Of a DNA stretch of 64,000 nt, positions 1 through 38,599 are shown one piece after another (position 1 is the first letter of the stretch; each line of letters begins with the position of its first letter). A model generated the notes under the pieces. That model saw nothing but the letters and a program-made list of their open reading frames with translations. It was not told the DNA's origin and did no database searches. The stretch spans positions 22,988,795 through 23,052,794 of the forward strand of contig NC_092670.1 in NCBI RefSeq assembly GCF_964355755.1, given 5' to 3'. The DNA is from Antedon mediterranea (Eukaryota > Animalia > Echinodermata). The position numbers and the translations under genes are program-made.

Positions 1-2142
1 ACGTACTACATACAGTGCAGAATAGGTGAAAATAAGTGACCAAAGTTATTGACGCTTTTGAACATGATGACGTCATCACAATTTTGAAAATGGTGAATCG
101 TGCGAAAGATAATTGATTGACCTAGACAATATAAGAAAATTGAGGGAAATGGAATACGGATAAGTGGAGATGCGCTCTATTAAATGTGACGAGCTATGAC
201 GAAAGAGAAAAAAATCCTATATTTTTTATTCGAGTGGCCATACGATGACGTCATAATATTCAGTTAGCCATATTAATGCAAGATTCGATAAAGACAACTC
301 ATCTACTTCCAGAATATGTAATTTAAAAAATTTTCACCACGTAGTTTAGAATTTATGACTGTTTTAAGAAAGGCATAATTTTGACAATTTTGTGAACTTT
401 TTCATCAAAAACGCGTGCAAATTGTTCAATTCTACGTGCTCGTATGACGTGATTTTAAGTCGAAATTGATAGACAATTGGTAAATTTACTAGAAAAGGCT
501 GAAAAACCAAAAATCAAGCAAAAAAAAGATGTTTCTGCGCTACGTGCACACGCGCGCGTAAAAAAATTGCGCACGCGTGGGAATTTTTGAAATGCTCAAA
601 ATGACCTGAAACGCGTAGAAAGTTGATTAGAAATTGATTTTACGCATTTTGAAATTTTAAACGCGCGTGCGCGCGTAACTTTATGGAAAAGTGCAATTTT
701 CAATCCATAGAAAGTTAGCGCATGATATAAACTACACTTTTGCCAAGTTTCAATTAAAATTGCTTTTTGGTTTTTGATATATGTTAAATACGCAAAAATC
801 ACAAAAACGCGCGTAACTTACGCTGCGCAACTATAAAGTCAAAAAACGAAACGTCCTGCACATCTACAGCTACAGGTCAATCTTAAGAAAAAGTTACACA
901 ATATTTTGTTTGCCAGAATTTGAGATACGCTGCCAACAAAATTCAGGGAAAGAAAGAAGAATAACATAGAAAAACTAGATTTGAACTCGTCACTACGGAC
1001 GAGTTAGGTTATCCGCAGTCCTAAAGCCACGTGCACGTCATACGTTGGAATATTGCGCGCAGAAAAACGATTATGCCATTGAAAAAAATGTGAGTGCGCT
1101 GTCTATTTTGTGTCACGTCAAAGTGTATACGGTATACACTATATACCGTATACGTACTACATACAGTTCAGAATAGGTGAAAATAAGTGACCAAAGTTAT
1201 TGACGCTTTTGGACATGATGACGTCATCACAATTTTTAAAATGGTGAATCGTGCGAAAGATAATTGATAGACCTAGACAATATAAAAAAAATGGGGGGAA
1301 ATGGAATACAAATAAGTGAAGATGCGCTATATTAAATGTGACGAGCTACGAGGAAAGAGACAAAAATCCTATATTTTATATTCGAGTGGCCATATGATGA
1401 CGTCACAATGTCCGGTTAGCCATATTGATGCATGATTTGATATCTGCAACTCATCTACTACCAGAATATGTAATTATAAAAAAGTTCACCACGTAGTTTA
1501 GAATTTATGACTGTTTAAAAAAAGGCATAATTTTGACTAATTTTTGAACTTTTTCATCAAAAATGCGCGTAAATTGTTTAATTCTACGTGCTCGTATGAC
1601 GTGATTTTAAGTCGAAATTGTTTGAAAATTTATAAATTTACTAGAAAAGGCTGAAAAAACAAAAATCAAGCAAAAAAAGGATGTTTTTGCGCTACGTGCG
1701 CACGCGCGCGTAAAAAAATTGCGCACGTGTGGGAATTTTTGAAATGCTTAAAATGACATGAAACGCGTAGAAAGTTGATTAGAAATTGATTTTTTGCATT
1801 TTGAAATTTTAAACGCGCGTGCGCGCGTAACTTTTTGTAAAACATGCTATTTTTAATCCATAGAAAGTTTGCGCATGATATGACTTAAATTTTCACCAAG
1901 TTTCAATACAAAATAACTTTTAGTTTTTATTCTATGATCAATCATTGAAATTCACAAAATCGCGCGTAACTTACGCTGCGCGACTCAAAATTTGAAAATA
2001 AAAGTTTCTTGCACATCTACAGCTACATATCAATCTTATGAAAAAGTTATACAATCATATGTTGTCCAAAATTAGAGATATGCGACCAACAAAATTCGTG
2101 GAAAGAAAGAAGAAAATAGAAAAAAAAAGAGAAAAAAAAAAA

Positions 2143-2370
2143 GATCCTGACAATAACAAGAGGTTATCCGCCAAGTGCGGATAACCAAAAAAAAAAAAAA
2201 AAAAAAAAAGATCCTGACAATAACAAGGGGTTATCCGCCAAGTGCGGATAACCAAAAAAAAAAGATCCTGACAATAACAAGGGGTTATCCGCCAAGTGCG
2301 GATAACCAAAAAAAAAAAAAAAAAAAGATCCTGACAATAACAAGGGGTTATCCGCCAAGTGCGGATAACC
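2143..2370 (-). repeat. Stack of four 44-bp 5'-terminal modules separated by A-tracts
   Basis: GATCCTGACAATAACAAG(A/G)GGTTATCCGCCAAGTGCGGATAACC occurs at 2143, 2210, 2264 and 2327. Double stacks also occur at ~10967/11042, ~13469/13533 and ~21033/21092. Confidence 0.95.
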
Positions 2371-5300
2371 AACTAGATTTGAACTCGTCACTACGGACGA
2401 GTTAGGTTATCCGCCTCGCAAAACCCACGCGCATGACACCTAAGTTAGAATATTGCGCGCAGAAAAACGATTATGCCATTGAAAAAATGTTAGTGAGCCC
2501 TCTATTTTGTGTCGCGTCTAAGTGTGTACGGTATACACTATATACTGTATACGTACTGCATACAGTGCAGAATAGGTGAAAATAAGTGACCAAAGTTATT
2601 GACGCATTTGAACATGATGACGTCATCACAATTTTAAAAATGGTGAATCATGCGAAAGATAATTGATTGATCTAGACAATATAAAAAAATTGAGTGAAAT
2701 GGAATACGGATAAGTGGAGATGCGCTCTATTAAATTTGACGAGCTATGACGAAAGAGAAAAAAATCTTATATTTTATATTCGGGTGGCCATACGATGACG
2801 TCACAATGTCCGGTTAGCCATATCAATGCATGATTCGAGAAAAACAACTCATCTACTTCCAGAATATGTAATTTTAAAAAAGTTCACCACGTAGTTTAGA
2901 AGTTATGACAGTTTAAAAAAAGGTCTAATTTTGACGATTTTTTGAAGTTTTTCATCAAAAACACGCGCAAATTATCCAATTCTACGTGCTCGTGTGACGT
3001 GATTATAAGTCGAAATTGATTGAAAATTTATAAATTTACTAGAAAAGGCTGAAAAAATAAAAATCAAGCAAAAAAAAGATGTTTTTGCGCTACGTGCGCA
3101 CGCGCGCGTAAAAAAATTGCGCACGCGTGGGAATTTTTGAAATGCTCAAAATGACATGAAACGCATAGAAAGTTGATTAGAAATTGATTTATCGCATTTT
3201 GAAATTTTAAACGCGCGTGCGCGCGTAACTTTTTAAAACCATGCCATTTTTAATCCATAGAAAGTTTGCGCATGATATGACTTAAATTTTCACCAAGTTT
3301 CAATACAAAATGACTTTTGGTTTTTAATCTATGATCAATCATTGAAATTCATAAAATCGAGCGTAACTTACGCTGCGCGACTCGAAAATCAAAAAACAAA
3401 GTTTCTTGCACATCTACAGATATAGTTCAATCTTATGACAAAGTTATACAATCATTTGTTAGCCAGAATTAGAGATATGCTTGCAACAAAATTCGTGGAA
3501 AGAAAGAAGAAAAAAGAAAAAAAAGAACTAGATTTGAACTCGTCACTACGGACGAGTTAGGTTATCCGCAGTCCTAAAGCCACGTGCACGTCATACGTTG
3601 GAATATTGCGCGCAGAAGAACGATTATGCCATTGAAAAAATGTGAGTGCGCTCTCTATTTTGTGTCACGTCAAAGTGTATACGGTATACACTATATACCG
3701 TATACGTACTACATACAGTTCAGAATAGGTGAAAATAAGTGACCAAAGTTATTGACGCTTTTGCACATGATGACGTCATAACAATTTTTAAAATGGTGAA
3801 TCATGCGAAAGATAATTGATTGACATAGACAATATAAAGAAATGGAGGGCAATGGAATACGGATAAGTGGAGATGCGCTCTATTAAATGTGATGAGCTAT
3901 ACGAAAGAGAAAAAAATCCTATATTTTATATTCGAGTGGCCATACGATGACGTCACAATGTCCTGATAGCCATATTGATACATGATTCGATATCTACAAC
4001 TCATCTACTACCAGAATATGTAATTATAAAAAAGTTTACCACGTAGTTTAGAATCTATGACTGTTTAAAAAAAGGCATAATTTTGACAAATTTTTGGACT
4101 TTTTCATCAAAATTGCGCGCAAATTGTTTAATTCTACGTGCTCGTATGACGAGATTTTAAGGCAAAATTGATTGAAAATTGGTAAATATATTATAAAAGA
4201 CAGAAAAAACAAAAATCAAACAAAAAAAAGATGTTTTTGCGCTACGTGCGCACGGGCGCGTAAAAAAAGTGCGCACGCGTGGGAATTTTTGAAATGCTCA
4301 AAATGACATGAAACGCGTAGAAAGTTGATTAGAAATTGATTTTTCGCAATTTGAAATTTTAAGCGCGCGTGCGCGCGTAACTTTTTGTAAAACATGCCAT
4401 TTTCTCTCCATAGAAAGTTAGCGCATAATATGACTTAAATTTTCACCAAGTTTCTATACAAAATGACTTTTAGTTTTTATTCTATGATCAATCATTGAAA
4501 TTCATAAAATCGCGCGTAACTTACGCTGCGCGACTCAAAATTCATAAAAAAAAGTTTCTTGCACATCTACAGCTACAGCGCAATCTTTTCACAAAGTTAT
4601 ACAACTTTATGTTGGCCGGAATTAGAGATACGCAGCGAACAAAATTCGTGGAAAGAAAGAAGAATATAGAAAAAAAAAAAAAAGAAAAAACTAGATTTGA
4701 ACTCGTCACTACGGACGAGTTAGGTTATCCGCCTCGCAAACGCCACGTGCACATCATACGTTAGAATATTGCGTACAGAAAAACGATTATGCCAATGAAA
4801 AAATGTTAGTGCGCTCTCTATTTTGTGTCACGTCTAAATATATACAGTATAACACTATATTCTGTATACGTACTACATACAGTTCAGAATAGGTGAAAAT
4901 AAGTGACCAAAGTTAATGACGCTTTTGCACATGATGACGTCATAAAAAATTTTAAAATGGTGAATCATGCGAAAGATAATTGATTGACCTAGACAATATA
5001 AAGAAATGGAAGGCAATGGAATACGGATAAGTGGAGATGCGCTCTATTAAATGTGATGAGCTAAGACGAAAGTGAAAAAAATCCTATATTTTATATTTGA
5101 GTGGCCATACGATAACGTCACAATGTCCGGTTAGCTATATTGATGCATGATTCGATATCTACAACTCATCTACTTCCAGAATATGTAATTTTAAAAAAGT
5201 TCACCACGTAGTTTAGAATCTATGACATTTTTAAAAAAGGCATAATTTTCACGAATTTTTTAACTTTTTCATCAAAAACGCGCGCAAATTTTTCAATTCT

Positions 5301-5845
5301 ACGTGCTCGTATGACGTGATTTTAAGTCGAAATTGTTTGAAAGTTGGTAAATCTACTAAAAAAAGACAGGAAAAACAAAAATCAAGCCAAAAAATGATGT
5401 TTTTGCGCTACGTGCGCACGCGCGCGTAAAACAATTGCGCACGTGTGGGAATTTTTGAAATGCTCAAAATGACATGAAATGCGTAGAAAGTTGATTAGAA
5501 ATTGATTTTTCGCATTTTGAAATTTTAAACGCGCATGCGCGCGTAACTTTCTCTAAAACATGCCATTTTCTCTCCATAGAAAGTTAGCGCATGATATGAC
5601 TTAAATTTTCACCAAGTTTCAATACAAAATGATATATAGTTTTTATTCTATGATCAATCATTGAAATTCATAAAATCGCGCGTAACTTACGCTGCGCGAC
5701 TCAAAATTCATAAAAAAAAGTTTCTTGCACATCTACAGCTACAGGGCAATCTTTTGACAAAGTTATACAATCATATGTTGGCCAGAATTAGAGATACGCT
5801 GCCAACAAAAAATGGGAGAGAAGTGTGTAAAGAAAGAAATAAATA

Positions 5846-7424
5846 CTAGATTTGAACTCGTCACTTTGACGAGTTCGGGTTATCCGCGCAAACGCAACAT
5901 GCACATACGTTTAAAATATATGAACGCCGATAATTATTATGCCATCCTATGACATGAATTAAATATGTTTACAGTGCTGAATTGTACCTATTTTGTAGCA
6001 TACATCATATTACAGTGTTTACAGAATACACTGTATATGTTATATACAGTGAAGCATAGACGGAATTACGAGACCCATCTTTTAAATCTAATTATTAACA
6101 CGATGACTTCATCAAATTGACATATAAAAACAACAATTTTAGAAGATAATTATCTAATTAATTACATTAATACAAATTTGAAGAATTTTGGGCACGTAAA
6201 AGTGAGATGCGCTCTCGTTTAAACGCAATGAACTTTTACGCAAGAGGTGAAAATACGACTTTTTTTATTCAATTGGCCATATGATGACGTCACAACATCT
6301 GATTGGCAAAATGTTCACATGATTTCGTATCTACAATCCAATAGCTTCCAGAAAACGTTTTAATCATGATTATCACTTTTTATTCAGACGAGCTATAACA
6401 GAGTAAAATTTACTGTAAAGATGAAAATAAGTGACCCACGTTATTTACATTTTTAGACATGATGCCGTCATAACAATTAACATATTTTTATCTCATGCGA
6501 AAGATAATTGATTGACGTAGACAATAATAAAATCTCGGGGGAAATGGAATTCGTATGAGCGAGATGCGCTTTGTTGAATGTGATGAGCAATAACGAAATA
6601 GACAAAAATCCTATATTTTATATTCGAGTGGCCATATGATGACGTCACAATGTCCGGTTAGCCATTTTCATGCATGATTTGATATCTACAACTCATCTAC
6701 TTCCAGAATCTGAAATTTTAAAAATGTTCACCACGGAGTTTAGAATCTATGACAGTTTAAAAAAAGGCATAATTTTGACAAATTTTTGAACTTTTTCATC
6801 AAAAATGCGCGCAAATTGTTTAATTCTACGTGCTCGTATGACGTGATTTTAAGTCGAAATTGATTTAAAATTGATCAATTTACTAGAAAAGGCTGAAAAA
6901 ACAAAAATCAAGCAAAAAAAAGATGTTTTTGCGCTATGTGCGCACGCGCGCGTAAAAAAATTGCGCACGCGTGGGAATTTTTGAAATGCTCAAAATGACA
7001 TGAAACGCGTAGAAAGTTGATTAGAAATTGATTTTTCGCATTTTGAAATTTCAAACGCGCGTGCGCGCGTAACCTTTTGTGAAACATGCCATTTTTAATC
7101 CATAGAAAGTTTGCGCATGATATTACTTAAATTTACACAAAGTTTCAATACAAAATGACTTTTGGTTTTTAATCTATGATCAATCATTGAAATTCATAAA
7201 ATCGCGCGTAACTTACGCTGCGCAACTCTAAATTCATTAAAAAAAGTTTCTTGCACATCTACAGCTACAGGGCAATCTTTTGACAAAGTTAAACAATTTT
7301 ATGTTAACCAGAATTAGAGATATGCCACCAACAAAATTCGGGGAAAGAAAGAAGAATAACATAGAAAAAAAAAAAAAAGATCCTGACAATAACAAGGGGT
7401 TATCCGCCAAGTGCGGATAACCAA
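5846..7424 (-). mobile_element. Long-variant array unit (~1.58 kb) with an extra diverged ~400-bp block
   Basis: The terminus is a variant, GAACTCGTCACTTTGACGAGTTCGGGTTATCCGC. The block at 5885-6410 is diverged but repeats the GAGATGCGC and GGCCATATGATGACGTCAC landmarks before the normal body resumes. Confidence 0.85.
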
Positions 7425-8646
7425 CTAGATTTGAACTCGTCACTACGGACGAGTTAGGTTATCCGCAGTGCAAAAGCCACGTGCACGTCATACGTTAGAA
7501 TAGTGCGCGCAAAAAAATAAAACGATTATGGCATTGAAAAATGTTAGTGCGCTCTCTATGTTGCGTCGCGTCTAAGTATATACGGTATAACACTATATAC
7601 TGTATACGTACTACATACAGTGCAGAACAGGTGAAAATAAGTGACCAAAGTTATTGACGCATTTGAACATGATGACGTCATCACAATTTTTAAAATGGTG
7701 GATCATGCGAAAGGTAATTGATTGATCTAGACAATATAAAAAAATTGAGTTAAATGGAATAAGGATAAGTAGAGATGCGCTCTATTAAATTGACGAGCTA
7801 TGACGAAAGAGAAAAAAATCCTATATTTTATATTCGGGTGGCCAAACGATGACGTCACAATGTCTGGTTAGCCATATCAATGCATGATTCGAGAAAAACA
7901 ACTCATCTACTTCCAGAATCTGAAATTTTAAATATTTTCACCTCGGAGTTTAGAATCTATGACTGTTTTAAAAAAGGCATAATTTTGACGAATTTTTGAA
8001 CTTTTTCTTCAAAAACGCGCGCAAATTGTTCAATTCTACGTGCTCGTATGACGTGATTTTAAGTCGAAATTGATTGAAAATTGGTAAATGTACTAGAAAA
8101 GGCTGAAAAAACAAAAATCAAGCAAAAAAAAGATGTTTTTGCGCTACGTGCGCACGCGCGCGTAAAAAATATGCGCACGCATGGGAATTTTTTAAATGCT
8201 TAAAATGACCTGAAACGCGTAGAAAGTTGAATAGAAATGGATTTTTCGCAATTTGAAATTCTAAACGCGCGTGCGCGCGTAACTTTTCGGAAAAGTGTCA
8301 TTTTAAATCCATAGAAAGTTAGCGCATGATATAAATTACACTTTTGCCAAGTTTCAATTAAAATTGCTTTTTGGTTTTCAATCTATGTTAAATACGCAAA
8401 ATTCACAAAATCGCGCGTAACTTACGCTGCGCGACTCTAAAGTCAAAAAACGAAACGTCCTGCACATCTACAGCTACAGGTCAATCCTATGAAAAAGTTA
8501 CACAATCTTCTGTTTGCCAGAATTAGAGATACGCTGCCAACAAAATTCAGGGAAAGAAAGAAGAATAACATAGAAAAAAAAAAAAAAAAAAAAAAAAAAA
8601 GATCCTGACAATAACAAGAGGTTATCCGCCAAGTGCGGATAACCAA
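7425..8646 (-). mobile_element. Representative complete array unit with both termini
   Basis: The CTAG/hairpin/subTIR end is at 7425, and the A-tract plus a single 44-bp terminal module ending CCAA is at 8646. Confidence 0.9.
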
Positions 8647-11600
8647 CTAGATTTGAACTCGTCACTACGGACGAGTTAGGTTATCCGCAGCGCAAAATCC
8701 ACGTGCACGTCATACGTTAGAATATTGCGCGCAGAAAAACGATTATGCCATTGAAAAAAATGTTAGTGTGCCCTCTATTTTGAGTCACGTCTAAGTATAT
8801 ACGGTATACACTATATACTGTATACCTACTACATACAGTGAAGAATATGTGAAAATAATTGGCCCAAGTTATTGACGTTTTTGGACATGATGACGTCATC
8901 ACAATTTTAAAAACGGTATATCATGCGAAAGATAATTGATTGGCATAGACAATATAAAAAAATGGGGGGAAATGGAATTCGGATAAGTGGAGATGCGCTC
9001 TATTAAATGTGATGAGCTATGATGAAAGAGACAAAAATCCTATATTTTATATTTGAGTGGCCATACGATGACGTCACTATGTCCTGTTAGCCATATCAAT
9101 TCATGATTCGATATCTACAACTCATCAACTTCCAGAATGTGTAATTTAAAAAAAGTTCACCTTGTAGTTTACAATCTATGACTGTTTTAAAAAAGGCATA
9201 ATTTTGACAAATTTTTGAACTTTTTCTTCAAAAACGCGCGCAAATTGTTCAATTCTGCGTGCTCGTATGACGAGATTTTAAATCAAAATTTATTGAAAAT
9301 TGGTAAATTTACTAGAAAAGGCTGAAAAAACAAAAATCAAGCAAAAAAAAGATGTTTTTGCGCTACGTGCGCACGCGCGCGTAAAAAAACTGCGCACTCG
9401 TGGGAATTTTTGAAATGCTCAAAATGACCTGAAACGCGTAGAAAGTTGATTAGAAATTGATTTTACGCATTTTGAAATTTTAAACGCGCGTGCGCGCGTA
9501 ATTTTTTGTGAAACATGCCATTTTTAATCCATAAAAAGTTTGCGCTTAATATGACTTAAATTTTCACTAAGTTTCAAAACAAAATGACTTATAGTTTTTA
9601 ATCTATGATCAATCATTGAAATTCATAAAATCGCACTTAACTTACGCTGCGCGACTCTAAAGTCAAAAAACGAAACGTCCTGCACATCTACCGCTACAGG
9701 TCAATATTATGACAAAGTTACACAATCTTATGTTGGCCAGAATTAGAGATATGCGACCAACAAAATTCGTGGAAAGAAAGAAGAAAATAGAAACTAGATT
9801 TGAACTCGTCACTACGGACGAGTTAGGTTATCCGCAGTGCAAAAGCCACATGCACGTCATACGTTAGAATATTGCGCGCAAAAAAAAAAACGATTATGGC
9901 ATTGAAAAATGTTAGTGCGCTCTCTATTTTGCGTCGCGTCTAAGTATATACGCTATAACACTATATACTGTATACGTACTACATACAGTGCAGAATAGGT
10001 GAAAATAAGTGACCAAAGTTATTGACGCATTTGAACATGATGACGTCATCACAATTTTTAAAATGGTGGATCATACAAAAAGATAATTGATTGATCTAGA
10101 CAATATAAAAAAATTGAGTGAAATGGAATAAGGATAAGTAGAGATGCGCTCTGTCAAATTGACGAGCTATGACGAAAGAGAAAAAAATCCTATATTTTAT
10201 ATTCGGGTGGCCATACGATGACGTCACAATGTCCGGTTAGCCATATCAATGCATGATTCGAGAAAAAAAACTCATCTACTTCCAGAATCTGAAATTTTAA
10301 ATATTTTCACCTTGGAGTTTAGAATCTATGACTTTTTAAAAAAAGGCATAATTTTCACAAATTTTTGAACTTTTTCATCAAAAACGCGCGCAAATTGTTC
10401 AATTCTACGTGCTCGTATGACGTGATTTTAAGTCGAAATTGTTTGAAAGTTGGTAAAATTACTAGAGAAGGCTGAAAAAACAAAAATCAAGCAAAAAAAA
10501 CATGTTTTTGCGCTACGTGCGCACGCGCGCGTAAAAAAATTGCGTACGCGTGGGAATTTTTGAAATGCTCAAAATGACATGAAACGCATAGAAAGTTGAT
10601 TAGAAATTGATTTTTCGCATTTTGAAATTTTAAACGCGCGTGCGCGCGTAACTTTTTGTAAAACCTGCCATTTTTAATCCATAGAAAGTTTGCGCATGAT
10701 ATGACTTAAATTTTCACCAAGTTTCAATACAAAATGACTTTTGGTTTTTAATCTATGATAAATCATTGAAATTCATAAAATCGCGCGTAACTTACGCTGC
10801 GTAACTCCGAAATCGTCCAAAAGCTTGGCTGCACATCTACAGCTATAGGTAAATATTATGACAAAGTTATACAATCTTATGTTGGCCAGAATTAGAGATA
10901 TACGACCAACAAAATTCGTGGAAAGAAAGAAGAACATAGAAAAAAAAAAAAAAAAAAAAAAAAAAAGATCCTGACAATAACAAGAGGTTATCCGCCAAGT
11001 GCGGATAACCAAAAAAAAGAGAAAAAAAATAAAAAAAAAAAGATCCTGACAATAACAAGAGGTTATCCGCCAAGTGCGGATAACCAACTAGATTTGAACT
11101 CGTCACTACGGACGAGTTAGGTTATCCGCAGAGCAAAAGCCACGTGCACGTCATACGTTAGAATATTGCGCAGAGAAAAACATTATGCCATTGAAAAAAT
11201 GTTAGTGCGCTCTCTATTTTACGTCACGTCTAAGTATACACAGTATACACTATATATTGTATACGTACTACATACAGTGAAGAATATGTGAAAATAAGTG
11301 GCCCAAGTTATTGACGCTTTTGGACATGATGACGTCATCACAATTTTAAAAACGGTATATCATGCGAAAGATAATTGATTGGCATAGACAATATAAAAAA
11401 ATGGGGGGAAATGGAATTGGGATAAGTGGAGATGCGCTCTATTAAATGTGATGAGCTATGACGAAAGAGACAAAAATCCTATATTTTATATTTGAGTGGC
11501 CATACGATGAGGTCACTATGTCCTGTTAGCCATATCGATGCATGATTCGATATCTAAAACTAATCAACTTCCAGAATATGTAATTTTAAAAAAGTTCACC

Positions 11601-20400: not shown

Positions 20401-23400
20401 AAGGCATAATTTTGACTAATTTTTTAACTTTTTCATCAAAAATGCGCGTAAATTGTTTAATTCTACGTGCTCGTATGACGTGATTTTAAGTCGAAATTGT
20501 TTGAAAGTTGGTAAATTTTCTAAAAGAGACAGGAAAAACAAAAATCAAGCAAAAAAATGATGTTTTTGCGCTACGTGCGCACGTGCGCGTAAAAAAAATT
20601 GCGCACGCATGGGAATTTTTGAAATGCTCAAAATGACATGAAACGCGTAGAAAGTTGATTAGATATTGATTTTTCGCATTTTAAAATTTTAAACGCGCGT
20701 GCGCGCGTAACTTTTTGTAAAACATGTCATTTTTAATCAATAGAAAGTTTGCGCATTATATGACTTAAATGTTCACCAAGTTTCAATATAAAATGAATTT
20801 TAGTTTTTAATCTACGATCAATCATTGAAATTCATAAAATCGCGCGTAACTTACGCTGCGCAACTCCGAAATCGTCCAAAAGCTTGGCTGCACATCTACA
20901 GCTACAGGTCAATCTTATGACAAAGTTATACAATGTTATATTTGCCAGAATTAGAGATATGCGACCAACAAAATTCGTGGAAAGAAAGAAGAACAAAGAA
21001 AAAGAAAAAGAAAAAAAAAAAAAAAAAAAAAAAGATCCTGACAATAACAAGGGGTTATCCGCCAAGTGCGGATAACCAAAAAAAAAAAAAAGATCCTGAC
21101 AATAACAAGGGGTTATCCGCCAAGTGCGGATAACCAACTAGATTTGAACTCGTCACTACGGACGAGTTAGGTTATCCGCCTCGCAAAACCCACGCGCATG
21201 ACACCTAAGTTAGAATATTGCGCGCAGAAAAACGATTATGCCATTGAAAAAATGTTAGTGAGCCCTCTATTTTGTGTCGCGTCTAAGTGTGTACGGTATA
21301 CACTATATACTGTATACGTACTGCATACAGTGCAGAATAGGTGAAAATAAGTGACCAAAGTTATTGACGCATTTGAACATGATGACGTCATCACAATTTT
21401 AAAAATGGTGAATCATGCGAAAGATAATTGATTGATCTAGACAATATAAAAAAATTGAGTGAAATGGAATACGGATAAGTGGAGATGCGCTCTATTAAAT
21501 TTGACGAGCTATGACGAAAGAGAAAAAAATCTTATATTTTATATTCGGGTGGCCATACGATGACGTCACAATGTCCGGTTAGCCATATCAATGCATGATT
21601 CGAGAAAAACAACTCATCTACTTCCAGAATATGTAATTTTAAAAAAGTTCACCACGTAGTTTAGAAGTTATGACAGTTTAAAAAAAGGTCTAATTTTGAC
21701 GATTTTTTGAAGTTTTTCATCAAAAACACGCGCAAATTATCCAATTCTACGTGCTCGTGTGACGTGATTATAAGTCGAAATTGATTGAAAATTTATAAAT
21801 TTACTAGAAAAGGCTGAAAAAATAAAAATCAAGCAAAAAAAAGATGTTTTTGCGCTACGTGCGCACGCGCGCGTAAAAAAATTGCGCACGCGTGGGAATT
21901 TTTGAAATGCTCAAAATGACATGAAACGCATAGAAAGTTGATTAGAAATTGATTTATCGCATTTTGAAATTTTAAACGCGCGTGCGCGCGTAACTTTTTA
22001 AAACCATGCCATTTTTAATCCATAGAAAGTTTGCGCATGATATGACTTAAATTTTCACCAAGTTTCAATACAAAATGACTTTTGGTTTTTAATCTATGAT
22101 CAATCATTGAAATTCATAAAATCGAGCGTAACTTACGCTGCGCGACTCGAAAATCAAAAAACAAAGTTTCTTGCACATCTACAGATATAGTTCAATCTTA
22201 TGACAAAGTTATACAATCATTTGTTAGCCAGAATTAGAGATATGCTTGCAACAAAATTCGTGGAAAGAAAGAAGAAAAAAGAAAAAAAAGAAAAAAAATA
22301 AAAAAAAAAAGATCCTGACAATAACAAGGGGTTATCCGCCAAGTGCGGATAACCAACTAGATTTGAACTCGTCACTACGGACGAGTTAGGTTATCCGCAG
22401 CGCAAAGGCCACGTGCACGTCATACGTTAGAATATAGCGCGCAGAAAAACGATTATGCCATTGAGAAAATGTTAGCGCGCTCTCTATTTTGCTTCACGTC
22501 AAAGTGTATACGGTATACACTATATACTGTATACGTACTACGTACAGTTCAGAATAGGTGAAAATAAGTGACCAAAGTTATTGACGCTTTTGCACATGAT
22601 GACGTCATAACAATTTTTAAAATGGTGAATCATGTGAAAGATAATTGATTGACCTAGACAATATAAAGAAATGGAGGGCAATGGAATACGGATAAGTGGA
22701 GATGCGCTCTATTAAATGTGATGAGCTATACGAAAGAGAAAAAAATCCTATATTTTATATTCGAGTAGCCATACGATGACGTCACAATGTCCTGTTAGCC
22801 ATATTGATACATGATTCGATATCTACAACTCATCTACTACCAGAATATGTAATTATAAAAAGGTTCACCACGTAGTTTAGAATCTATGACTGTTTAAAAA
22901 ATGCATAATTTTGACAAATTTTTAGACTTTTTCATCAAAATTGCGCGCAAATTGTTTAATTCTACGTGCTCGTATGACGAGATTTTAAGGCAAAATTGAT
23001 TGAAAGTTGATAAATTTATTATAAAAGACAGAAAAAACAAAAATCAAGCAAAAAAAAGATGTTTTTGCGCTACGTGCGCACGTGCGCGTAAGAAAAGTGC
23101 GCAAGCGTGGGAATTTTTGAAATGCTCAAAATGACATGAAACGCGTAGAAAGTTGATTAGAAATTGATTTTTCGCATCTTGAAATTTTAAACGCGCGTGC
23201 GCGCACAACTTTTTGCGCAACCTGCCATATTTAATCTACAGAAAGTTTGCGCTTTATATGACTTAAATTTTCACCAAGTTTCAATACAAAATGACTTTTG
23301 GTTTTTAATCTATGATCAATAATTGAAATTCATAAAATCGCGCGTAACTTACGCTGCGCAACTCGAAATTTGAAAAAAAAAGTTTCTTGCACATCTACAG

Positions 23401-23507
23401 ATATAGGGCAATCTTTTGAAAAAGTTATACAATCTTCTGTTGGCTAGAATTAGAGATACGCTGCCCACAAAAAATGGGAGAGAAGTGTGGAAAGAAAGAA
23501 ATAAATA

Positions 23508-24714
23508 CTAGATTTGAACTCGTCACGTTGACGAGTTAGGCTATCGCCCAACGCATCGTAACACGCACATGTTATTTATTATGCTTAGTCTACAATAGGC
23601 TGCACTACAACGATTGTAAAGAACAGCTGGAATACATCAAAATCGTTTAATAAGTGTCAACAGTTGACGGTATTAGCATTGTAAACGGTTTAGTTGACGG
23701 TTATTTTTTATTTTACACCACTCACGTTTATTCAATTATTTGAAAATGATGACCTTTTCAAATTAAAAAAAAAGTTCATAAGTCTAAAAAGGAATTGTTT
23801 TAGTAATAAAATATTGAAAATTGGAAGAAAATTGATAACGTTTACGCGGTATGCGCTCTATTGAATGTGACGAACTGTGTCGAAAGAGACAAAATCCCTA
23901 TATTTTACATTTGTGTGGCCATACGATGACGTCACAACAGCCCAGAGGTAAACATTTTGCATGAATTCATATCTACAGTATATATGCTTACATATTAGGT
24001 TAAAAAAATTGGGGGTCACCAGACATCCCGGAGAGCTATAATCGATTCAAAATAGGCATATTTTTACACAAATTTGCATAAAATTACCAATTTTCAAGCG
24101 CACGATTTTTAAAGTTTGACGTGCACGTGTGTCATTATTTTGCATTCATAATTCATCAAATATGAAAGAAATATATCATAAAACTATGAAAAACAATAAT
24201 CAAGCGCAAAAACGGGCTTTCTAGGCTGCGTACGAGCGAAGTGCGCAATAGCGCGCGCGCAACGCAAATTTTTTTTGAAAAATGTGAAATGCTTAAAATG
24301 TCCTGAAACGTGTAGAAAGTTGATTAGAAATTGATTTTGAGCATTTTTAACTTTCAAAGCGCGCGTACGCGCGATTTGACCAATGTTCAAAATTTTGCTG
24401 ATGATACAGGAAGATGACCCTTGACATGAAGCATACGTGTGTCAAGTGGTATTTAAAAATAGCTATTGGTTTTCAAGTTATAGTCAATCTAAGAATTTCA
24501 GAAAATCGCGCGTAGTTACGCTACGCGACCATATTTTCATTAAACCAAAGTTTGTTGCACAACTACATATATACGTGCATCTGCTGGCCAAGTTACAACA
24601 TAACTGCTACCGCCGTTTTTGAGATCTGCGTGACACAAAAATTGAGCAGAAAAAATGAAATTTGTGACAATAACAATAGGCTATCGCTCTACAGAGAGTA
24701 GAGCGATAGCCTAA
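23508..24714 (-). mobile_element. Divergent sister-family Helentron-like unit with its own subTIR
   Basis: The left end is CTAGATTTGAACTCGTCACGTTGACGAGTTAGGCTATCGC. The right end is GACAATAACAA TAGGCTATCGCTCTAC-agaga-GTAGAGCGATAGCCTA A. The body is colinear with the other units but clearly more diverged. Confidence 0.88.
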
Positions 24715-27700
24715 CTAGATTTGAACTCGTCACTACGGACGAGTTAGGTTATCCGCAGCGCAAAGGCCACGTGCACGTCATACATTAAAATATTGCGCGC
24801 AGAAAAACCATTAAGTCATTGAAACAATTTCAGTGTGCTCTCTATTTTTCGTCACGTCTGAATATATACGGTATACGCTAATATACTGTATACGTACTAC
24901 ATACAGTGCAGAATAGGTGAAAATAAGTGACCAAAGTTATTGACGCTTTTGGACATGATGACGTCATCACAATTTCTAAAATGGTTAATCATGCGAAAGA
25001 TAATTGATTGACCTAGACAATATAAAGAAATGGAGGGCAATGGAATACGGATAACCGGAGATGCGCTCTATTAAATGTGATGAGCTATACGAAAGAGAAA
25101 AAAATCCTATATTCTATATTCGAGTAGCCATACGATGACGTCACAATGTCCTGTTAGCCATATTGATACATGATTCGATATCTACAACTCATCTACTACC
25201 AGAATATGTATTTACAAAAAAGTTCACCACGTAGTTTAGAATCTATGACTGTTTAAAAAAAGGCATAATTTTGACAAATTTTTAGACTTTTTCATCAAAA
25301 TTGCGCGCAAATTGTTTAATTCTACGTGCTCGTATGACGAGATTTTAAGGCAAAATTGATTGAAAGTTGATAAATTTATTATAAAAGACAGAAAAAACAA
25401 AAATCAAGCAAAAAAAAGATGTTTTTGCGCTACGTGCGCACGTGCGCGTAAAAAAAGTGCGCAAGCGTGGGAATTTTTGAAATGCTCAAAATGACATGAA
25501 ACGCGTAGAAAGTTGATTAGAAATTGATTTTTCGCACTTTGAAATTTTAAACGCGCGTGCGCGCGTAACTTTTTGCGCAACCTGCCATATTTAATCTACA
25601 GAAAGTTTGCGCTTTATATGACTTAAATTTTCACCAAGTTTTAATACAAAATGACTTTTGGTTTTTAATCTATGATCAATAATTGAAATTCATAAAATCA
25701 CGCGTAACTTACGCTGCGCGACTCGAAATTTGAAAAAAAAAGTTTCTTGCACATCTACAGATATAGGGCAATCTTTTGACAAAGTTATACAATCTTCTGT
25801 TGGCTAGAATTAGAGATACGCTGCCCACAAAAAATGGGAGAGAAGTGTGGAAAGAAAGAAATAAATACTAGATTTGAACTCGTCACTACGGACGAGTTAG
25901 GTTATCCGCAGCGCAAAGGCCACGTGCACGTCATACGTTAGAATATTGCGCGCAGAAAAACGATTAAGGCATTGAAACAATTTCAGTGTGCTCTCTATTT
26001 TTCGTCACCTCTAAGTATATACGGTATACACTATATACTGTATACGTACTACATACAGTGCAGAATAGGTGAAAATAAGTGACCAAATTTTATTGACGCT
26101 TTTGAACATGATGACGTCATCACAATTTTAAAAATGGTGAATCGTGCGAAAGATAATTGATTGACCTAGACAACATAAAAAAATGGGGGGGAAATGGAAT
26201 ACAAATAAGTGGAGATGCGCTATATTAAATGTGACGAGCTACGAGGAAAGAGACAAAAATCCTATATTTTATATTCGAGTGGCCATACGATGACGTCAGA
26301 ATGTCCGGTTAGCCATATTGATGCATTATTTGATATCTGCAACTCATCTACTACCAGAATATGTAATTATAAAAAAGTTCACCACGTAGTTTAGAATCTA
26401 TGACTGTTTAAAAAAAGACATAATTTTGACAAATTTTTGAACTTTTTCATCAAAAATGCGCGTAAATTGTTTAATTCTACGTGCTCGTATGACGTGATTT
26501 TAAGTCGAAATTGTTTGAAAGCTGGTAAATTTTCTAAAAAAGACAGGAAAAACAAAAATCAATCAAAAAAATGATGTTTTTGCGCTACGTGCGCACGTGC
26601 GCGTAAAAAAATTGCGCACGCGTGGGAATTTTTGAAATGCTCAAAATGACATGAAACGCGTAGAAAGTTGATTAGATATTGATTTTTCGCATTTTGAAAT
26701 TTTAAATACGCGTGCGCGCGTAACTTTTTATGAATCATGCCATTTCTAATCCATAGAAAGTTTGCGCATTATATGACTTAATTGTTCACCAAGTTTCAAT
26801 ACAAAATGACTTTTAGTTTTTATTCTATGATCAATCATTGAAATTCACAAAATCGCGCGTAACTTACGCTGCGCGACTCGAAATTTGAAAAAAAAAGTTT
26901 CTTGCACATCTACAGCTACATGGCAATCTTTTGACAAAGTTATACAATCATATGTTGGCCAGAATTAGAGATACGCTGCGCACAAAAAATGGGGGAGAAG
27001 GGTGGAAGGAAACAAATAAATACTAGATTTGAACTCGTCACTACGGACGAGTTAGGTTATCCGCATCGCAAAACCCACGCGCATGACACCTAAGTTAGAA
27101 TATTGCGCGCAGAAAAACGATTATGCCATTGAAAAAATGTTAGTGAGCCCTCTATTTTGTGTCGCGTCTAAGTGTGTACGGTATACACTAAATACTGTAT
27201 ACGTACTACATACAGTGCAGAATAGGTGAAAATAAGTGACCAAAGTTATTGACGCATTTGAACATGATGACGTCATCACAATTTTAAATATGGTAAATCA
27301 TGCGAAAGATAATTGATTGATCTAGACAATATAAAAAAATTGAGTGAAATGGAATACGGATAAGTGGAGATGCGCTCTATCAAATTTGACGAGCTATGAC
27401 GAAAGTGAAAAAAATCCTATATTTCATATTTGAGGGGCCAAAGGATGACGTCACAATGTCCGGTTAGCCATATCACTGCATGATTCGAGAAAAACAACTC
27501 ATCTACTTCCAGAATATGTAATTTTAAAAAAGTTCACCACGTAGTTTAGAATTTATGACTGTTTAAAAAAAGGTCTAATTTTGACGATTTTTTTAAGTTT
27601 TTCATCAAAAACACGTGCAAATTATCCAATTCTACGTGCTCGTGTGACGTGATTTTAAGTCGAAATTGATTGAAAATTCATAAATTTACTAGAAAAGGCT

Positions 27701-30700
27701 GAAAAAACAAAATATTTTTAACTCATGCGAAAGATAATTGATTGACCTAGAAAATATAAAAAAATTGAGTGAAATGGAATACGGATAAGTAGAGATGCGC
27801 TCTATTAAATTTGACGAGCTATGACGAAAGAGAACAAAATCCTATTTTTATATTTGGGTGGCCATACGATGACGTCGCAATGTCCGGTTAGCAATATCAA
27901 TGCATGATTCTATATCTACAACTCATCAAATTCCAGAATATGTAATTTTAAAAAAGTTCACCACGTAGTTTAGAATTTATGACTGTTTAAAAAAATGTCT
28001 AATTTTGACAAATTTTTGAAGTTTTTCTTCAAAAACGTGCCTAAATTGTTCAATTCTACGTGCTCGTATGACGTGATTTTAAGTCGAAATTGATTGAAAA
28101 TTGATAAATTTACTAGAAAAGGCTGAAATAACAAAAATCAAGCAAAAAAAAGACGTTTTTGCGCTACGTGCGCACGCGCGCGTAAAAAAATTGCGAACGC
28201 GTGGGAATTTTTGAAATGCTCAAAATGACATGAAACGCGTAGAAAGTTGATTAGAAATTGAATTTTCGCATTTTGAAATTTTAAACGCGCGTGCGCGCGT
28301 AACTTTCTGTCAAACATGCCATTTTTAATCCATAGAAAGTTTGAGCATGTTATGACTTAAATTTTCACCAAGTTTCAATACAAAATGACTTTTAGTTTTT
28401 ATTCTATGATCAATCATTGAAATTCATAAAATTGCGCGTAACTTACGCTGCGCAACTCGAAATTCGAAAAAAAAAGTTTCTTGCACATCTACAGCTACAG
28501 GGCTATCTTTTGACAAAGTTATACAATCATATGTTGGCCAGAATTAGAGATACGCTGCGAACAAAAATCGTGGAAAGAAAGAAGAAAATAGAAGACTAGA
28601 TTTGAACTCGTCACTACGTACGAGTTAGGTTATCCGCAGCGCAAAAGCCACGCGCACGATATAAGTTAGAAAATGTTAGTGTGCTCTCTATTTTGCGTCA
28701 CGTCTGAGTATAAACGGTATACACTATATACTGTATACGTACTACATACAGTGCAGAATAGGTGAAAATAAGTGACCAAAGTTATTGACGCGTTTGGACA
28801 TGATGACGTCATAACAATTTTAAAAATGGTGAATCATTCTAAAGATAATTGATTAACCTAGGCAATATATAAAAATGGGGGGAAATGGAATACGGATAAG
28901 TGGAGATGCGCTCTATTAAATGTGATGAGCTTTGACGAAAGAGACAAAAATCCTATATTTTATATTCGTGTGGCCATACGATGACGTCACAATGTCCGGT
29001 TAGCCAAATCGATGCATGATTCTATATCTACAACTCATCTACATTCAGAATATGTAATTTAAAAAAAATTCACCACGTAGTTTAGAATCTATGACTGTTT
29101 AAATAAAGGCATAATTTGTACAAATTTTTGAACTTTTTCATCAAAAATGCGCGTAAATTGTTTAATTCTACGTGCTCGTATGATGTGATTTTAAGTCGAA
29201 ATTGTTTGAAAGTTGGTAAATTTACTAAAAAAGACAGGAAAAACAAAAATCAAGCAAAAAAATGATGTTTTTGCTCTACATGCGCACGCGCGCGTAAAAA
29301 AATTGCGCACGCGTGGGAATTTTTGAAATGCTCAAAATGACATGAAACGCGTAGAAAGTTCATTAGAAATTGATTTTTTGCATTTTTTAATTTTAAACGC
29401 GCGTGCGCGCGTAACTTTCTGTAAAACATGCCATTTTCTCTCCATAGAAAGTTAGCGCATGATATGACTTAAATTTTCACCAAGTTTCAATACAAAATGA
29501 TATATAGTTTTTATTCTATGATCAATCATTGAAATTCATAAAATCGCGCGTAACTTACGCTGCGCGACTCAAAATTCATAAAAAAAAGTTTCTTGCACAT
29601 CTACAGCTACAGGGCAATCTTTTGACAAATTTATACAATCATATGTTGGCCAGAATTAGAGATACGCTGCCAACAAAAAATGGGAGAGAAGTGTATAAAG
29701 AAAGAAATAAATACTAGATTTGAACTCGTCACTACGGACGAGTTAGGTTATCCGCAGTCCTATAGCCACGTGCACGTCATACGTTGGAATATTGCGCGCA
29801 GAAAAACGATTATGCCATTGAAAAAATGTGAGTGCGCTCTCTATTTTGTGTCACGTCAAGTGTATACGGTATACACTATATACCGTATACGTACTACATA
29901 CAGTTCAGAATAGGTGAAAATAAGTGACCAAAGTTATTGACGCTTTTGCATATGATGACGTCATAACAATTTTTAAAATGGTGAATCATGCGAAAGATAA
30001 TTGATTGACATAGACAATATAAAGAAATTGAGGGCAATGGAATACGGATAAGTGGAGATGCGCTCTATTAAATGTGATGAGCTATACGAAAGAAAAAAAA
30101 ATCCTATATTTTATATTCGAGTGGCCATACAATGACGTCACAATGTCCTGATAGCCATATTGATACATGATTCGATATCTACAACTCATCTACTACCAGA
30201 ATATGTAATTATAAAAAAGTTTACCACGTAGTTTAGAATCTATGACTGTTTAAAAAAAGGCATAATTTTGACAAATTTTTGGACTTTTTCATCAAAATTG
30301 CGCGCAAATTGTTTAATTCTACGTGCTCGTATGACGAGATTTTAAGGCAAAATTGATTGAAAATTGGTAAATATATTATAAAAGACAGAAAAAACAAAAA
30401 TCAAGCAAAAAAAAGATGTTTTTGCGCTACGTGCGCACGCGCGCGTAAAAAAATTGCGCAAGCCTGGGAATTTTTGAAATGCTCAAAATGATATGAAACG
30501 CGTAGAAAATTGATTAGAAGTTGATTTTTTGCATTTTGAAATTTTAAACGCGCGTGCGCGCGTAACTTTCTGTGAAACATGCAATTTTTAATCCATAGAA
30601 AGTTTGCGCTTGATATGACTTAAATTTTCACAAAGTTTCAATACAAAATAACTTTCGGTTTTTAATCTATGATCAATCATTTAAATTCATAAAATCGCGC

Positions 30701-30853
30701 GTAACTTACGCTGCGCAACTCCGAAATCGTCCAAAAGCTTGGCTGCACATCTACAGCTATAGGTCAATCTTATGACAAAGTTATACAATCTTATGTTGGC
30801 CAGAATTAGAGATATGCGACCAACAAAATTCGTGGAAAGAAAGAAGAACATAG

Positions 30854-30884
<31 letters not shown>

Positions 30885-33800
30885 TCCTGACAATAACAAG
30901 GGGTTATCCGCCAAGTGCGGATAACCAACTAGATTTGAACTCGTCACTACGGACGAGTTAGGTTATCCGCAGTCCTAAAGTCACGTGCACGTCATACGTT
31001 GGAATATTGCGCGCAGAAAAACGATTATGCCATTGAAAAAATGTGAGTGCGCTCTCTATTTTGTGTCACGTCAAAGTGTATACGGTATACACTATATACC
31101 GTATACGTACTACATACAGTTCAGAATAGGTGAAAATAAGTGACCAAAGTTATTGAGGCTTTTGCACATGATGACGTCATAACAATTTTTAAAATGGTGA
31201 ATCATGTGAAAGATAATTGATTGACATAGGCAATATAAAGAAATGGAGGGCAATGGAATACGGATAAGTGGAGATGCGCTCTATTAAATGTGATGAGCTA
31301 TACGAAAGAGAAAAAAATCCTATATTTTATATTCGAGTGGCCATACGATGACGTCACAATGTCCTGATAGCCATATTGATACATGATTCGATATCTACAA
31401 CTCATCTACTACCAGAATATGTAATTATAAAAAAGTTTACCACTTAGTTTTTAGAATCTATGACTGTTTAAAAAAAGGCTTAATTTTCACAAATTTTTGA
31501 ACTTTTTCATCAAAATTGCGCGCAAATTGTTTAATTCTACATGCTCGTATGACGTGATTTTAAGTCGAAATTGATTGAAAATTGGTAAATTTACTATAAA
31601 AGGCTGAAAAAACAAAAATCAAGCAAAAAAAATATGTTTTTGCGCTACGTGCGCACGCGCGCGTAAAAAAATTGCGCACGCGTGGGAATTTTTCAAATGC
31701 TCAAAATGACATGAAACGCGTAGAAAGTTGATTAGAAATTGATTTTTCGCATTTTGAAATTTTAAACGCGCGTGCACGCGTAACTTTTTGTAAAACATGC
31801 CATTTTTAATCCATAGAAAGTTTGCGCTTGATATGACTTAAATTTTCACCAAGTTTCATTACAAAATGACTTTTGATTTCTAATCTATGATCAATCATTG
31901 AAATTCATAAAATTGCGCGTAACTTACGCTGCGCGACTCTAAAGTTAAAAAACGAAACGTCCTGCACATCTACAGCTAGAGGTCAATCTTATGACAAAGT
32001 TACACAATCTTATATTGGCCAGAATTAGAGATACGCTGCGAACAAAATTCCGGGAAAGAAAGAAGAATAAGATAGAAAAAAAAAAAAAAGAAAAAAAAAG
32101 ATCGTGACAATAACAAGAGGTTATCCGCCAAGTGCGGATAACCAACTAGATTTGAACTCGTCACTACGGACGAGTTAGGTTATCCGCAGCCCAAAAGCCA
32201 CGTGCACGTCATACGTTAGAATATTGCACACAGAAAAAGATTATTATGACTACTATACTATACTATAGATCCCTGGACCTATTTGTTTATCACAAATAGC
32301 CAATGAGTACTTAGTCTTATTTGGCCTGCTACATTATAGCAGTAGGTAGGAAATAAATGATTTGGGCTATACCAAATGCCGTTACAGTATATACAGTATA
32401 TTCTTTATACGTACTATATACAGTTCAGAATAGGTGAAAATAAGTGACCAAAGTTATTGACGCTTTTGAACATGATGACGTCAACACAAATTTAAAAATG
32501 GTGAATCATGCGAAAGATAATTAATTGACCTAGACATTATATAAAAATAGGAGGAAATAGAATACGGATAAATAGAGATGAGCTCTATTAAATGTGGCGA
32601 GCTAAGACGAAAGAGACAACAATCCTATATTTTATATTCGAGTGGCCATACGATGACGTCACAATGTCCGATTAGCCAAATCGATGCATGATTCTATATC
32701 TACAGCTCATCTACATTCAGAATATGTAATTTTAAAAAATTTCACCACGTAGTTTAGAATCTATGACTGTTTAAAAAAAGGCATAATTTTGACAAAATTT
32801 TGAACTTTTTCATCAAAAATGCGCGCAAATTGTGCAATTCTACGTGCTCGTATGACGTGATTTTAAGTCGAAATTGTTTGAAAGTTGGTAAATTTACTAA
32901 AAAAGACAGGAAAAACAAAAATCAAGCAAAAAAATGATGTTTTTGCGCTACATGCGCACGCGCGCGTAAAAAAATTGCGCACGCGTGGGAATTTTTGAAA
33001 TGCTCAAAATGACATGAAACGCGTAGAAAGTTGATTAGAAATTGATTTTTCGCATTTTGAAATTTTAAACGCGCGTGCGCGCGTAATTTTCTCTAAAACA
33101 TGCCATTTTCTCTCCATAGAAAGTTAGCGCATGATATGACTTAAATTTTCACCAAGTTTCAATACAAAATGATATATAGTTTTTATTCTATGATCAATCA
33201 TTGAAATTCATAAAATCGCGCGTAACTTACGCTGCGCAACTCAAAATTCATAAAAAAAAGTTTCTTGCACATCTACAGCTACAGGGCAATCTTTTGACAA
33301 ATTTATACAATCATATGTTGGCCAGAATTAGAGATACGCTGCCAACAAAAAATGGGAGAGAAGTGTATAAAGAAAGAAATAAATACTAGATTTGAACTCG
33401 TCACTACGGACGAGTTAGGTTATCCGCAGCGCAAAAGCCACGTGCACGTCATACGTTAGAATATTGCGCGCAGAAAAACGATTATGCCATTGAAAAAATG
33501 TTAGCGCGCTCTCTATTTTCCGTCACGTCAAAGTGTATACGGTATACACTATATACTGTATACGTACTACGTAAAGTTCAGAATAGGTGAAAATAAGTGA
33601 CCAAAGTTATTGACGCTTTTGCACATGATGACGTCATAACAAATTTTAAAATGGTGAATCATGCGAAAGATAATTGATTGACCTAGACAATATAAAGAAA
33701 TGGAGGGGGAAATGAAATACAAATAATTGGAGATGCGCTATATTAAATGTGACGAGCTACGAGGAAAGAGACAAAAATCCTATATTTTATATTCGAGTGG

Positions 33801-34094
33801 CCATAATTGTACGTATTTTGTGTCATAAAACAGATAATAATTGTATTTAAGGAATATTCTGAATATGTTATATACAGTGTAGCAAAGATTAAATTACGAG
33901 ACCTATTTTTTAATTCAATTTTTAACTTGAAGGAATCATCAAAACGTAATATAAAGATAGTAATTTAAATCTAGTCTTTTGTGCTGCCACCTAGCATAGT
34001 TTTTTTTTCTCTTCTGGTCATCATCATGTATCATGCATGCATACTCTGTCTGCTGAAAGTAGACTATACGCGCATGCGGAAGAGTAGTTGGGGG

Positions 34095-34290
34095 TTAAGC
34101 CACGCCCATTTATGTAAATTGCCCACGTTCGTCCTGGAAAAAAAAAAATTACACGGTGGTAAATGTGATATATTTTACGTTGTGATTGGGTATATAGTTA
34201 TTTGGTAATGACTGAACATGCGCATTTTATTTTTATATTGAGCATTTGATTGGTTCAAAATTTCCATCAATGACGCTCTTGTATAAAAGT
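34095..34290 (+). promoter_or_regulatory. Putative Pol II promoter of the OB-fold gene
   Basis: There is a GC/KLF-type box GCCACGCCC (34099), two inverted CCAAT boxes (ATTGG at 34185 and 34249) and TATAAAAG at 34282, 68 bp before the ATG. The ATTGG boxes are kept in the duplicate at ~42285 and ~42360. Confidence 0.6.
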
Positions 34291-34349
34291 TAAGATAGAG
34301 TAAAGTAGTTAGTTGGAAAGTCAATGTAAAGTCAAGGTGTTGGGAAAGG

Positions 34350-37807: not shown

Positions 37808-38024
37808 GGTAACAGTTGTTTGCAAGTTTGTTTTAATGCGTTTTTATTTTATATATTTGTTGAAAAGTAAATTTAATGATTTTGTACTTAAAATCATTAA
37901 ATTTACTTTCATTATTTATTAATATACTGAATTAACATTGATTATTTAATAGACATATATGATAATCTTATGTACAAAATATACAATGCTAATTAATATT
38001 TAAAAAAAGTAATAAAGGAAATAC

Positions 38025-38450: not shown

Positions 38451-38599
38451 TTTGTTAATTATAATTTTATCAATTTAAATGTTTTAAAAACAATATGTTA
38501 TAAACCAACTAACCTATAAAGTTTAATAAACGCTGGATTTTAAAAATGTGAAGGTTGAAATGTCTTTCCTCTCAAATTTTTAAGTATTAAATTTGAGTA

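Follow-up and report, generated by a model that had tools for sequence, protein, structure and literature searches.

A head-to-tail array of Helentron-like units in Antedon mediterranea that probably grew by insertion at its own junctions

We analysed a stretch of 64,000 nucleotides from the echinoderm Antedon mediterranea (NCBI RefSeq assembly GCF_964355755.1, contig NC_092670.1, positions 22,988,795 to 23,052,794 of the forward strand; the whole stretch is referred to here as the window). Its left part is an uninterrupted head-to-tail array of non-coding units that resemble Helentrons, a group of rolling-circle transposons. With a probability that we put at roughly 0.7, this array grew unit by unit, through transposase-made insertion at its own junctions and in the T-tracts adjacent to them. 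An original prediction, made from the sequence alone, had described the array as a landing pad for its own kind, with every junction at a neighbour's 5' terminus. Insertion of whole units at the array's own junctions or T-tracts is still the best reading of the results presented below, but the 5' terminus is not what the junctions share.

A 14-nt motif at the CTAG end, which occurs 27 times on the plus strand and not at all on the minus strand, divides bases 1-33805 into 28 units (U0 to U27). The element direction, from 5'-TT to CTAG-3', is that of the minus strand, and complete units measure 1118-1579 nt. The left end of the array lies before base 1, so that it comprises at least 28 units and at least 33.8 kb. 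All units from U0 to U27 are joined base-exactly, with no host DNA between them, and their junctions fall into three classes. At thirteen of the 27 (class 1; 12 of the main family and U19 with a module of its own), the 5' module is followed by exactly AA and then CTAG. Seven (class 2; U0, U2, U3, U7, U11, U13 and U22) lie at seven different points of the A-tract, and the remaining seven (class 3; U4, U15, U18, U20, U21, U23 and U26) share one fixed site, AAATAAATA directly followed by CTAG, at positions 5846, 19855, 23508, 25868, 27023, 29714 and 33386. The number of junctions, their single orientation, their 13/7/7 division and the lack of separating host DNA are thus as originally predicted. 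However, to place every junction at a neighbour's 5' terminus was too strong, since the true terminus is present at 13 junctions only and, together with its hairpin, is missing at the other 14. The feature common to all junctions is instead the 3' end followed by T. Indeed, the base before CTAG is A at 27 of 27 junctions (that is, CTAG^T on the element strand), and the terminal 19 nt of the 3' end are invariant in 27 of 27 units. No junction lies in a unit body, despite the body holding 82% of element-strand TT sites (P = 1e-20, a nominal value that assumes independent events); the longest T run there is at most 9 nt in the seven intact units counted. Along the array, class-2 joints tend to occur further left and class-3 joints further right (Mann-Whitney P = 0.04 in a single unplanned test).

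Read on the minus strand, an intact unit is made up, in order, of TT, a 10-bp hairpin, a T-tract, a non-coding body of about 1.1 kb, a repeat arm, an 8-bp stem-loop and CTAG. The outer arm of the 5' hairpin is a subterminal inverted repeat of 10-11 bp, with one copy 2 nt from the 5' end and the other 33-43 nt from the 3' end, and its 5'-side copy is absent from the 14 module-less units. Three 3'-end types are intermixed along the array, namely the main family, type B (U5 and U13, in which the 3' 570 nt are diverged) and U19; all three have a 3' stem of 8-10 bp ending 8-9 nt before the terminus, and class-3 joints are found next to each of them. In U19 both subterminal arms have changed together and the 5' palindrome has a 16-bp stem (10 bp in the main family), with the terminal 19 nt unchanged. 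The number of terminal T residues does not vary, being exactly two at all 13 intact joints. Coding capacity is absent, the longest stop-free frames in the array (91-122 codons) being low-complexity read-through. The units have the anatomy of non-autonomous Helentrons (HINE/HLE2), and the two T-tract nests described below rejoin with a net gain of TT and without target duplication, as Helentron insertion demands. A canonical Helitron (HLE1; 5'-TC, CTRR-3', no inverted repeats, A^T target) was rejected: only CTAG-3' fits, whereas the element begins with TT, carries subterminal repeats and has its nested insertions in T-tracts. Two units have internal peculiarities. U22 contains a 424-nt tandem duplication (27294-28136; 91% identity), in keeping with an exchange between two different units that were out of register, and U26 carries about 150 nt near its 3' end (32236-32405) that have no other match in the window.

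Adjacent units are not close relatives. The mean distance between neighbours is 13.76%, against 13.44 +/- 0.55% expected from 20,000 permutations; the median over pairs of units is 10.8%. In none of the 28 units is the nearest relative adjacent (2.0 expected), and in four it lies within two places (3.9 expected). Among the 23 complete main-type units, none of the lags from 1 to 8 departs from expectation, and the order of junction classes along the array, tested for periodicity, is aperiodic. A tree of 25 of the 28 units (U0, U19 and U27 were left out) has no adjacent sister pair and places the seven class-3 units in one clade. Since neighbours are unrelated, lags flat and classes aperiodic, both a single-template concatemer and a higher-order or homogenised satellite are rejected, the former because no unit has its nearest relative next to it and the latter because there is neither a period nor local homogenisation at lags 1 to 8. 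In this respect the original prediction was borne out: it had held neighbours to be different variants and an ordinary satellite or a single-template concatemer to be unlikely, and the two contrary outcomes that it named, adjacent units as closest relatives and a fixed higher-order period, were looked for and did not appear.

Recently shared sequence, moreover, stops at the junctions. The twins U2 and U17 are 15 units apart and the twins U5 and U13, which differ by 0.2%, are 8 apart; in both pairs the neighbours differ on both sides. Among the 28 units no block of two recurs anywhere, and long exact matches that cross a joint (the 70 longest of 1350 were inspected) extend only into the conserved terminal block. 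With near-identity defined as at most 2 differences in 100 columns, and its continuation checked over a 100-column gap with twins excluded, near-identity continued in 84 of 350 cases inside units and in 0 of 27 across a junction (Fisher P = 0.0013; these P values are nominal, as windows and pairs overlap). At a threshold of 1 the figures were 22 of 151 and 0 of 17 (P = 0.13), and at a threshold of 3 they were 164 of 732 and 2 of 33 (P = 0.028). Collapsed by hand, the 27 rows represent about 17 independent links, which gives 0.76^17, or about 0.01. Homologous crossing-over is hard to invoke at three of the joints, where there is little homology: U4/U5 and U18/U19 have only 19-20 nt of homology to the main family, and U19/U20 has a foreign 5' module on one side.

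If a unit inserts into the T-tract of its neighbour, a cut unit is expected on one side and, on the other, a piece of tract stranded together with its module. The array contains seven cut units and six extra modules, and last-in-first-out pairing joins U7 with the extra module on U8, and U13 with that on U16. If two A are given to the insert, the rejoined tract of U7 begins with the complex pattern seen in U1, U10, U11 and U12; likewise, U13 regains 14 A (2 + 12), and the module that it recovers is of the variant found in its twin U5. Both nests rejoin exactly, and the insert therefore adds TT without duplicating its target. Nicking within poly-T has been proposed for Helentrons (Thomas et al. 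2014, PMC4067079; here and below, papers are cited from the parts of their text available to us). The extra modules on U1 and U10, which share tract and lineage, likely represent an inherited double 5' end. It had also been suggested that the array is an ordered record of insertion events. The two nests do rejoin in last-in-first-out order, but only a partial order is recoverable, because an insertion that precedes a 5' end yields the same sequence as one that follows a 3' end and because units are mosaic, four of the seven cut units lack a stranded module and the right end is truncated.

These results favour a model in which the array provides its own target. The head-to-tail joint (3' stem-loop, then CTAG^T) has the sequence of a transposon-circle joint, so that a RepHel transposase would cut the incoming circle and the array junction alike and then swap strands, each swap adding one unit plus one new target site. 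The transposase of Helraiser forms circles and cleaves the 3'-to-5' junction precisely, reversibly and on one strand (Grabundzija et al. 2018, PMC5876387), and Helentrons target T-rich sites without duplication (PMC4067079). Insertions slightly off the joint would fall in the long T-tract, a target canonical for Helentrons, and cut away the neighbour's 5' module, which would stay stranded or travel along as a double 5' end, and mosaic units would arise from ordinary homologous exchange within unit bodies. The junction is more likely determined by the 3' end than by the 5' hairpin, since the 3' end is the sole part common to the three types and module-less class-3 ends join all three.

Tandem clones of geminiviruses release unit-length circles between two origins. 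Circle release of this kind would let module-less units move, and the class-3 junctions fit it as well as they fit one old joint followed by later insertions. A bolder form of the model, which we offer tentatively and do not favour, would be that each tandem joint is a complete and reusable Rep origin, and that the array both takes in and releases single-unit circles. Units without a 5' end (class 3 and the unmatched class 2) would then persist as an array-obligate lineage that starts from the neighbour's 3' end, and distant families sharing the last 19 nt could board the same array.

Eighteen sequencing runs contain part of the stretch, of which four were compared at a class-1 joint and four at a class-3 joint, all as contigs (runs X1 and X3 are one sample, perhaps the source sample, and X5 is from another study). 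The class-3 tail continues into CTAG in 4 of 4 covering X1 contigs and 2 of 2 X3 contigs, for 13-20 nt past the joint, which is short of the 31 nt set for bridging; one X5 contig has the same joint. The X1 class-3 contigs have a summed depth of 23,774, compared with about 180-300 for single-copy-looking contigs, a rough sign that this joint exists in tens of copies, and no solo form was seen in the X1 contigs. The array family as a whole is very abundant: its contig depths add up to thousands of times the value for single-copy-looking contigs, although this is not a copy number. Loose ends before A/CTAG were present in 68, 26, 13 and 22 contigs of X1, X3, X5 and X6, respectively. They include other junction classes as well as unlike flanks (median 255 nt in X3), and the unlike flanks imply that solo copies or array ends exist. 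The terminal patterns had no match in the metagenome, genome and viral contigs searched, as expected for an animal repeat and evidence neither way.

Several observations weigh against unit-wise growth by self-targeting. Two X1 joints run from a unit body into a CTAG end; these, together with the 3' ends beside unlike flanks, indicate that targeting is strong at the array locus but not exclusive. Three other pairings of cut units and extra modules also equalled some intact unit's tract, so that pure-A matches alone are weak. For U2, U3, U11 and U22 the window contains no stranded module, and the case of U0 is ambiguous; the modules could have been lost at the truncated right end or by deletion, or these four units could have arrived without one. 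Class 3 is probably a single recurrent joint, made once, and inheritance explains its seven junctions as well. The units are mosaics of recently shared blocks, hence recombination is active and could also have shuffled neighbours, and U18 and U20, two places apart, are mutual closest relatives (3.7%), which hints at some local duplication. A matrix-correlation linkage test gave rho near 0 across junctions but was mostly non-significant within units too, a weak positive control that leaves it without power. Finally, no autonomous element with array-type termini was found in the window, beyond which the far end of a RepHel frame described below lies.

Some of these points would be expected of an old satellite-like array, in which a few founder joints made by transposition were followed by unequal crossing-over and gene conversion among many arrays. 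Such turnover would explain the mosaic bodies, the U18/U20 similarity, the high abundance of the family in reads and the one recurrent class-3 joint, with its tail running into CTAG in all four X1 and both X3 covering contigs. We nevertheless consider it unlikely. Shared blocks halt at junctions, none of 27 continuing, and the twins match over whole units with exact limits. The tracts are cut at seven different points, two nests are exact, diverged units are joined with about 20 nt of homology, and there is no period. Alternatively, Rep might nick the junctions with strand exchange between arrays, or multi-unit transfer, as the outcome, and without growth one by one. This improbable reading requires the same cleavage chemistry (PMC5876387) and accounts equally well for the break of linkage at junctions and the missing stranded modules; however, the nests U7/U8 and U13/U14-16 require true tract insertion, and the lack of any shared two-unit block also argues against it.

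A rolling-circle concatemer of one template, inserted once and later decayed, is how tandem Helitrons are usually explained (PMC5876387; Xiong et al. 2016 via PMC12628747) and would produce exact CTAG^TT joints without host DNA. Here it is very improbable, given the median distance between units, twins 8 and 15 units apart, three 3'-end types and three junction classes, and the diverged U19 inside the array contradicts it. Least credible of all is an assembly artefact joining dispersed copies. The repeat is certainly of very high copy number, no read-run contig examined spans a unit, and the class-3 contigs extend no more than 13-26 nt beyond the joint, less than the 31 nt required for bridging. 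Yet the joints are base-exact under one rule, the nests rejoin across 1.3 and 3.6 kb, and the class-3 tail runs into CTAG in contigs of X1, of X3 and of X5, which comes from another study.

Tandem Helitrons are commonly interpreted as fossil concatemers, and satellites derived from transposons are attributed to unequal exchange; a study in maize reportedly described clustering of Helitrons in the same orientation. The array points to a third route, self-targeted growth by units in which each insertion adds a target. Its units share with HINE/DINE-1 and HLE2 elements (PMC4067079; HELIANO, PMC11417382) the lack of coding sequence, subterminal repeats 2 nt from the 5' end, a short inverted repeat at the 5' arm, the 3' stem-loop, T-rich targets and absence of target duplication. 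Unlike HINE/DINE-1 they end in CTAG, as do proto-Helentron-Pi (PMC4067079) and canonical Helitrons. Exactly two T contrast with the variable T number of HINEs, which is a reported trait rather than a strict criterion, and the subterminal repeat of 10-11 bp compares with 12-15 bp in mite HINEs. Whereas HINE arrays consist of internal repeats, like those of Xenopus elements (PMC7492417, PMC12001565), this array is made of whole elements.

Tandem Helitrons of bats and plants (PMC5876387; Xiong et al. 2016 via PMC12628747) are, as here, arranged head-to-tail without host DNA and may carry multiple 5' ends on one 3' end, as do U1 and U10. They are ascribed to one-template concatemers and are often 3'-truncated; in the present array, in contrast, every unit keeps its 3' end, truncation is 5' and neighbours are unrelated. 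In Fusarium, FoHeli elements insert into themselves near the 5' end to give transposable double 5' termini, as on U1 and U10, and one element was inserted 2 bp from another (Chellappan et al. 2016, PMC5148889). FoHeli forms isolated dimers and one trimer, compared with the 27 joints, rejoinable nests and module-less units found here. Double insertion (McGurk and Barbash 2018, PMC5932611) likewise yields tandems from independent insertions, each with a reusable target. In those systems, however, a duplicated host target is reused and large arrays form by unequal exchange, whereas here the target is the element's own sequence and nothing is left of a host target. The Helraiser circle junction of right and left terminal sequences (RTS-LTS) has a 3' hairpin, CTAG and then T, as do the array joints (PMC5876387); its cleavage concerns the Helitron1 transposase acting on oligonucleotides and circles, and a chromosomal tandem joint as target is not described in the available text. 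Helitrons targeted to telomeres (PMC13085455) and orientation-specific targeting by HUH transposons (PMC10288648) have also been reported.

The ingredients are already known; what is new, as far as the available parts of these papers go, is how they are organised and the evidence that growth was unit by unit. In the available text of this literature, accessible without subscription, no long array was found that is built of unrelated whole Helentrons, is joined exactly to itself, contains nests that can be rejoined and mixes families. The array gives sequence-level tests of where Helentrons end and where they are nicked (net TT, no duplication), positions that flanking poly-T usually obscures. 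The model also makes a direct biochemical prediction for the Helentron transposase group, for which no reconstituted system was found in the literature available to us. If true, it would offer a very abundant element harmless sites to insert at, and 5'-defective ones a survival route.

Table 1. Coordinates of the array, selected units and nests, and the RepHel frame in the window
Feature	Position	Strand	Description
Head-to-tail array, 28 units U0-U27	1..33805	minus	U0 cut by window edge, U27 truncated
Four stacked 5' modules on U1	2143..2372	minus	own module, another with a counterpart of the same form on U10, and two that were probably stranded from U0 or from units left of the window
U2, cut in tract	2373..3527	minus	all 1155 nt identical to intact U17 (21138-22356)
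Seven module-less class-3 units with diverged subterminal tail	5770..33385	minus	one clade in tree
U5	5846..7424	minus	type-B 3' portion on main-type body; twin of U13
Example 3' end, U6	7425..7467	minus	subterminal repeat arm, 8-bp stem-loop, 9 nt, CTAG
Example 5' module, U6	8601..8646	minus	TT, 10-bp hairpin with subterminal repeat as outer arm; then T-tract
Nest 1: U8 (9794-11012) inside U7 T-tract	8647..11087	minus	U7 complex tract remainder and module stranded at about 11013-11087
Double 5' module on U10	13469..13579	minus	142-nt exact match; same tract and lineage as U1
Nest 2: U14, U15 and U16 inside U13 T-tract	15964..21137	minus	stranded remainder and module at about 21080-21137
U19, diverged family	23508..24714	minus	about 66% identical in BLAST; both flanking joints base-exact
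U27	33386..33805	minus	3'-terminal 420 nt only, then type-B-like sequence adjoins
Open RepHel frame, 2814 codons	55558..63999	plus	Herpes_teg_N, OTU, DUF6570, Helitron_like_N, PIF1; runs off window

The open RepHel frame lies 22 kb from the array. Its closest named relatives are Antedon mediterranea proteins, with 86-94% identity over the Rep region, several of which have an endonuclease domain, so that the host likely has intact Helentrons. DUF6570 and Herpes_teg_N are reported to be almost exclusive to HLE2 (PMC11417382). The frame is uninterrupted and was possibly active recently, and its domains make it a candidate source of transposase for the array. By eye, a hydrophobic stretch can be seen at its N-terminus, as well as a Cys/His cluster similar to a PHD finger. 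The array-type terminal motif was searched for in 33450-64000 and did not occur. Diverged remnants of the type-B and main bodies in array orientation are present at 33807-33965, 42116-42190 (weak, E = 0.11) and 50091-50381. The region right of the array may represent the ends of large Helentrons; the RepHel frame would then be antisense to the TT-to-CTAG direction.

The same region contains several other repeats. Positions 33891-39001 and 42114-45526 form a diverged same-strand duplication with 73-88% identity in blocks. A short coding-like segment recurs on both strands (34299-34610, 38218-38453, 42521-42745, 44701-44947 and 45762-46824) and forms a 367-nt tandem repeat; it had no Pfam match, and an Atlas search with the 34299-34610 frame (top score 0.90, few shared features) gave no usable lead. 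The only match in an Rfam scan, outside the array, was a tRNA-like sequence at 35317-35388 on the minus strand (54.8 bits), which may be the head of a short interspersed element (SINE). Close by, 35115-35207 contains a near-perfect 44-bp palindrome with a 5-nt loop. Finally, a 342-nt tandem repeat of 3.7 copies is located upstream of the RepHel frame, at 52829-54101.

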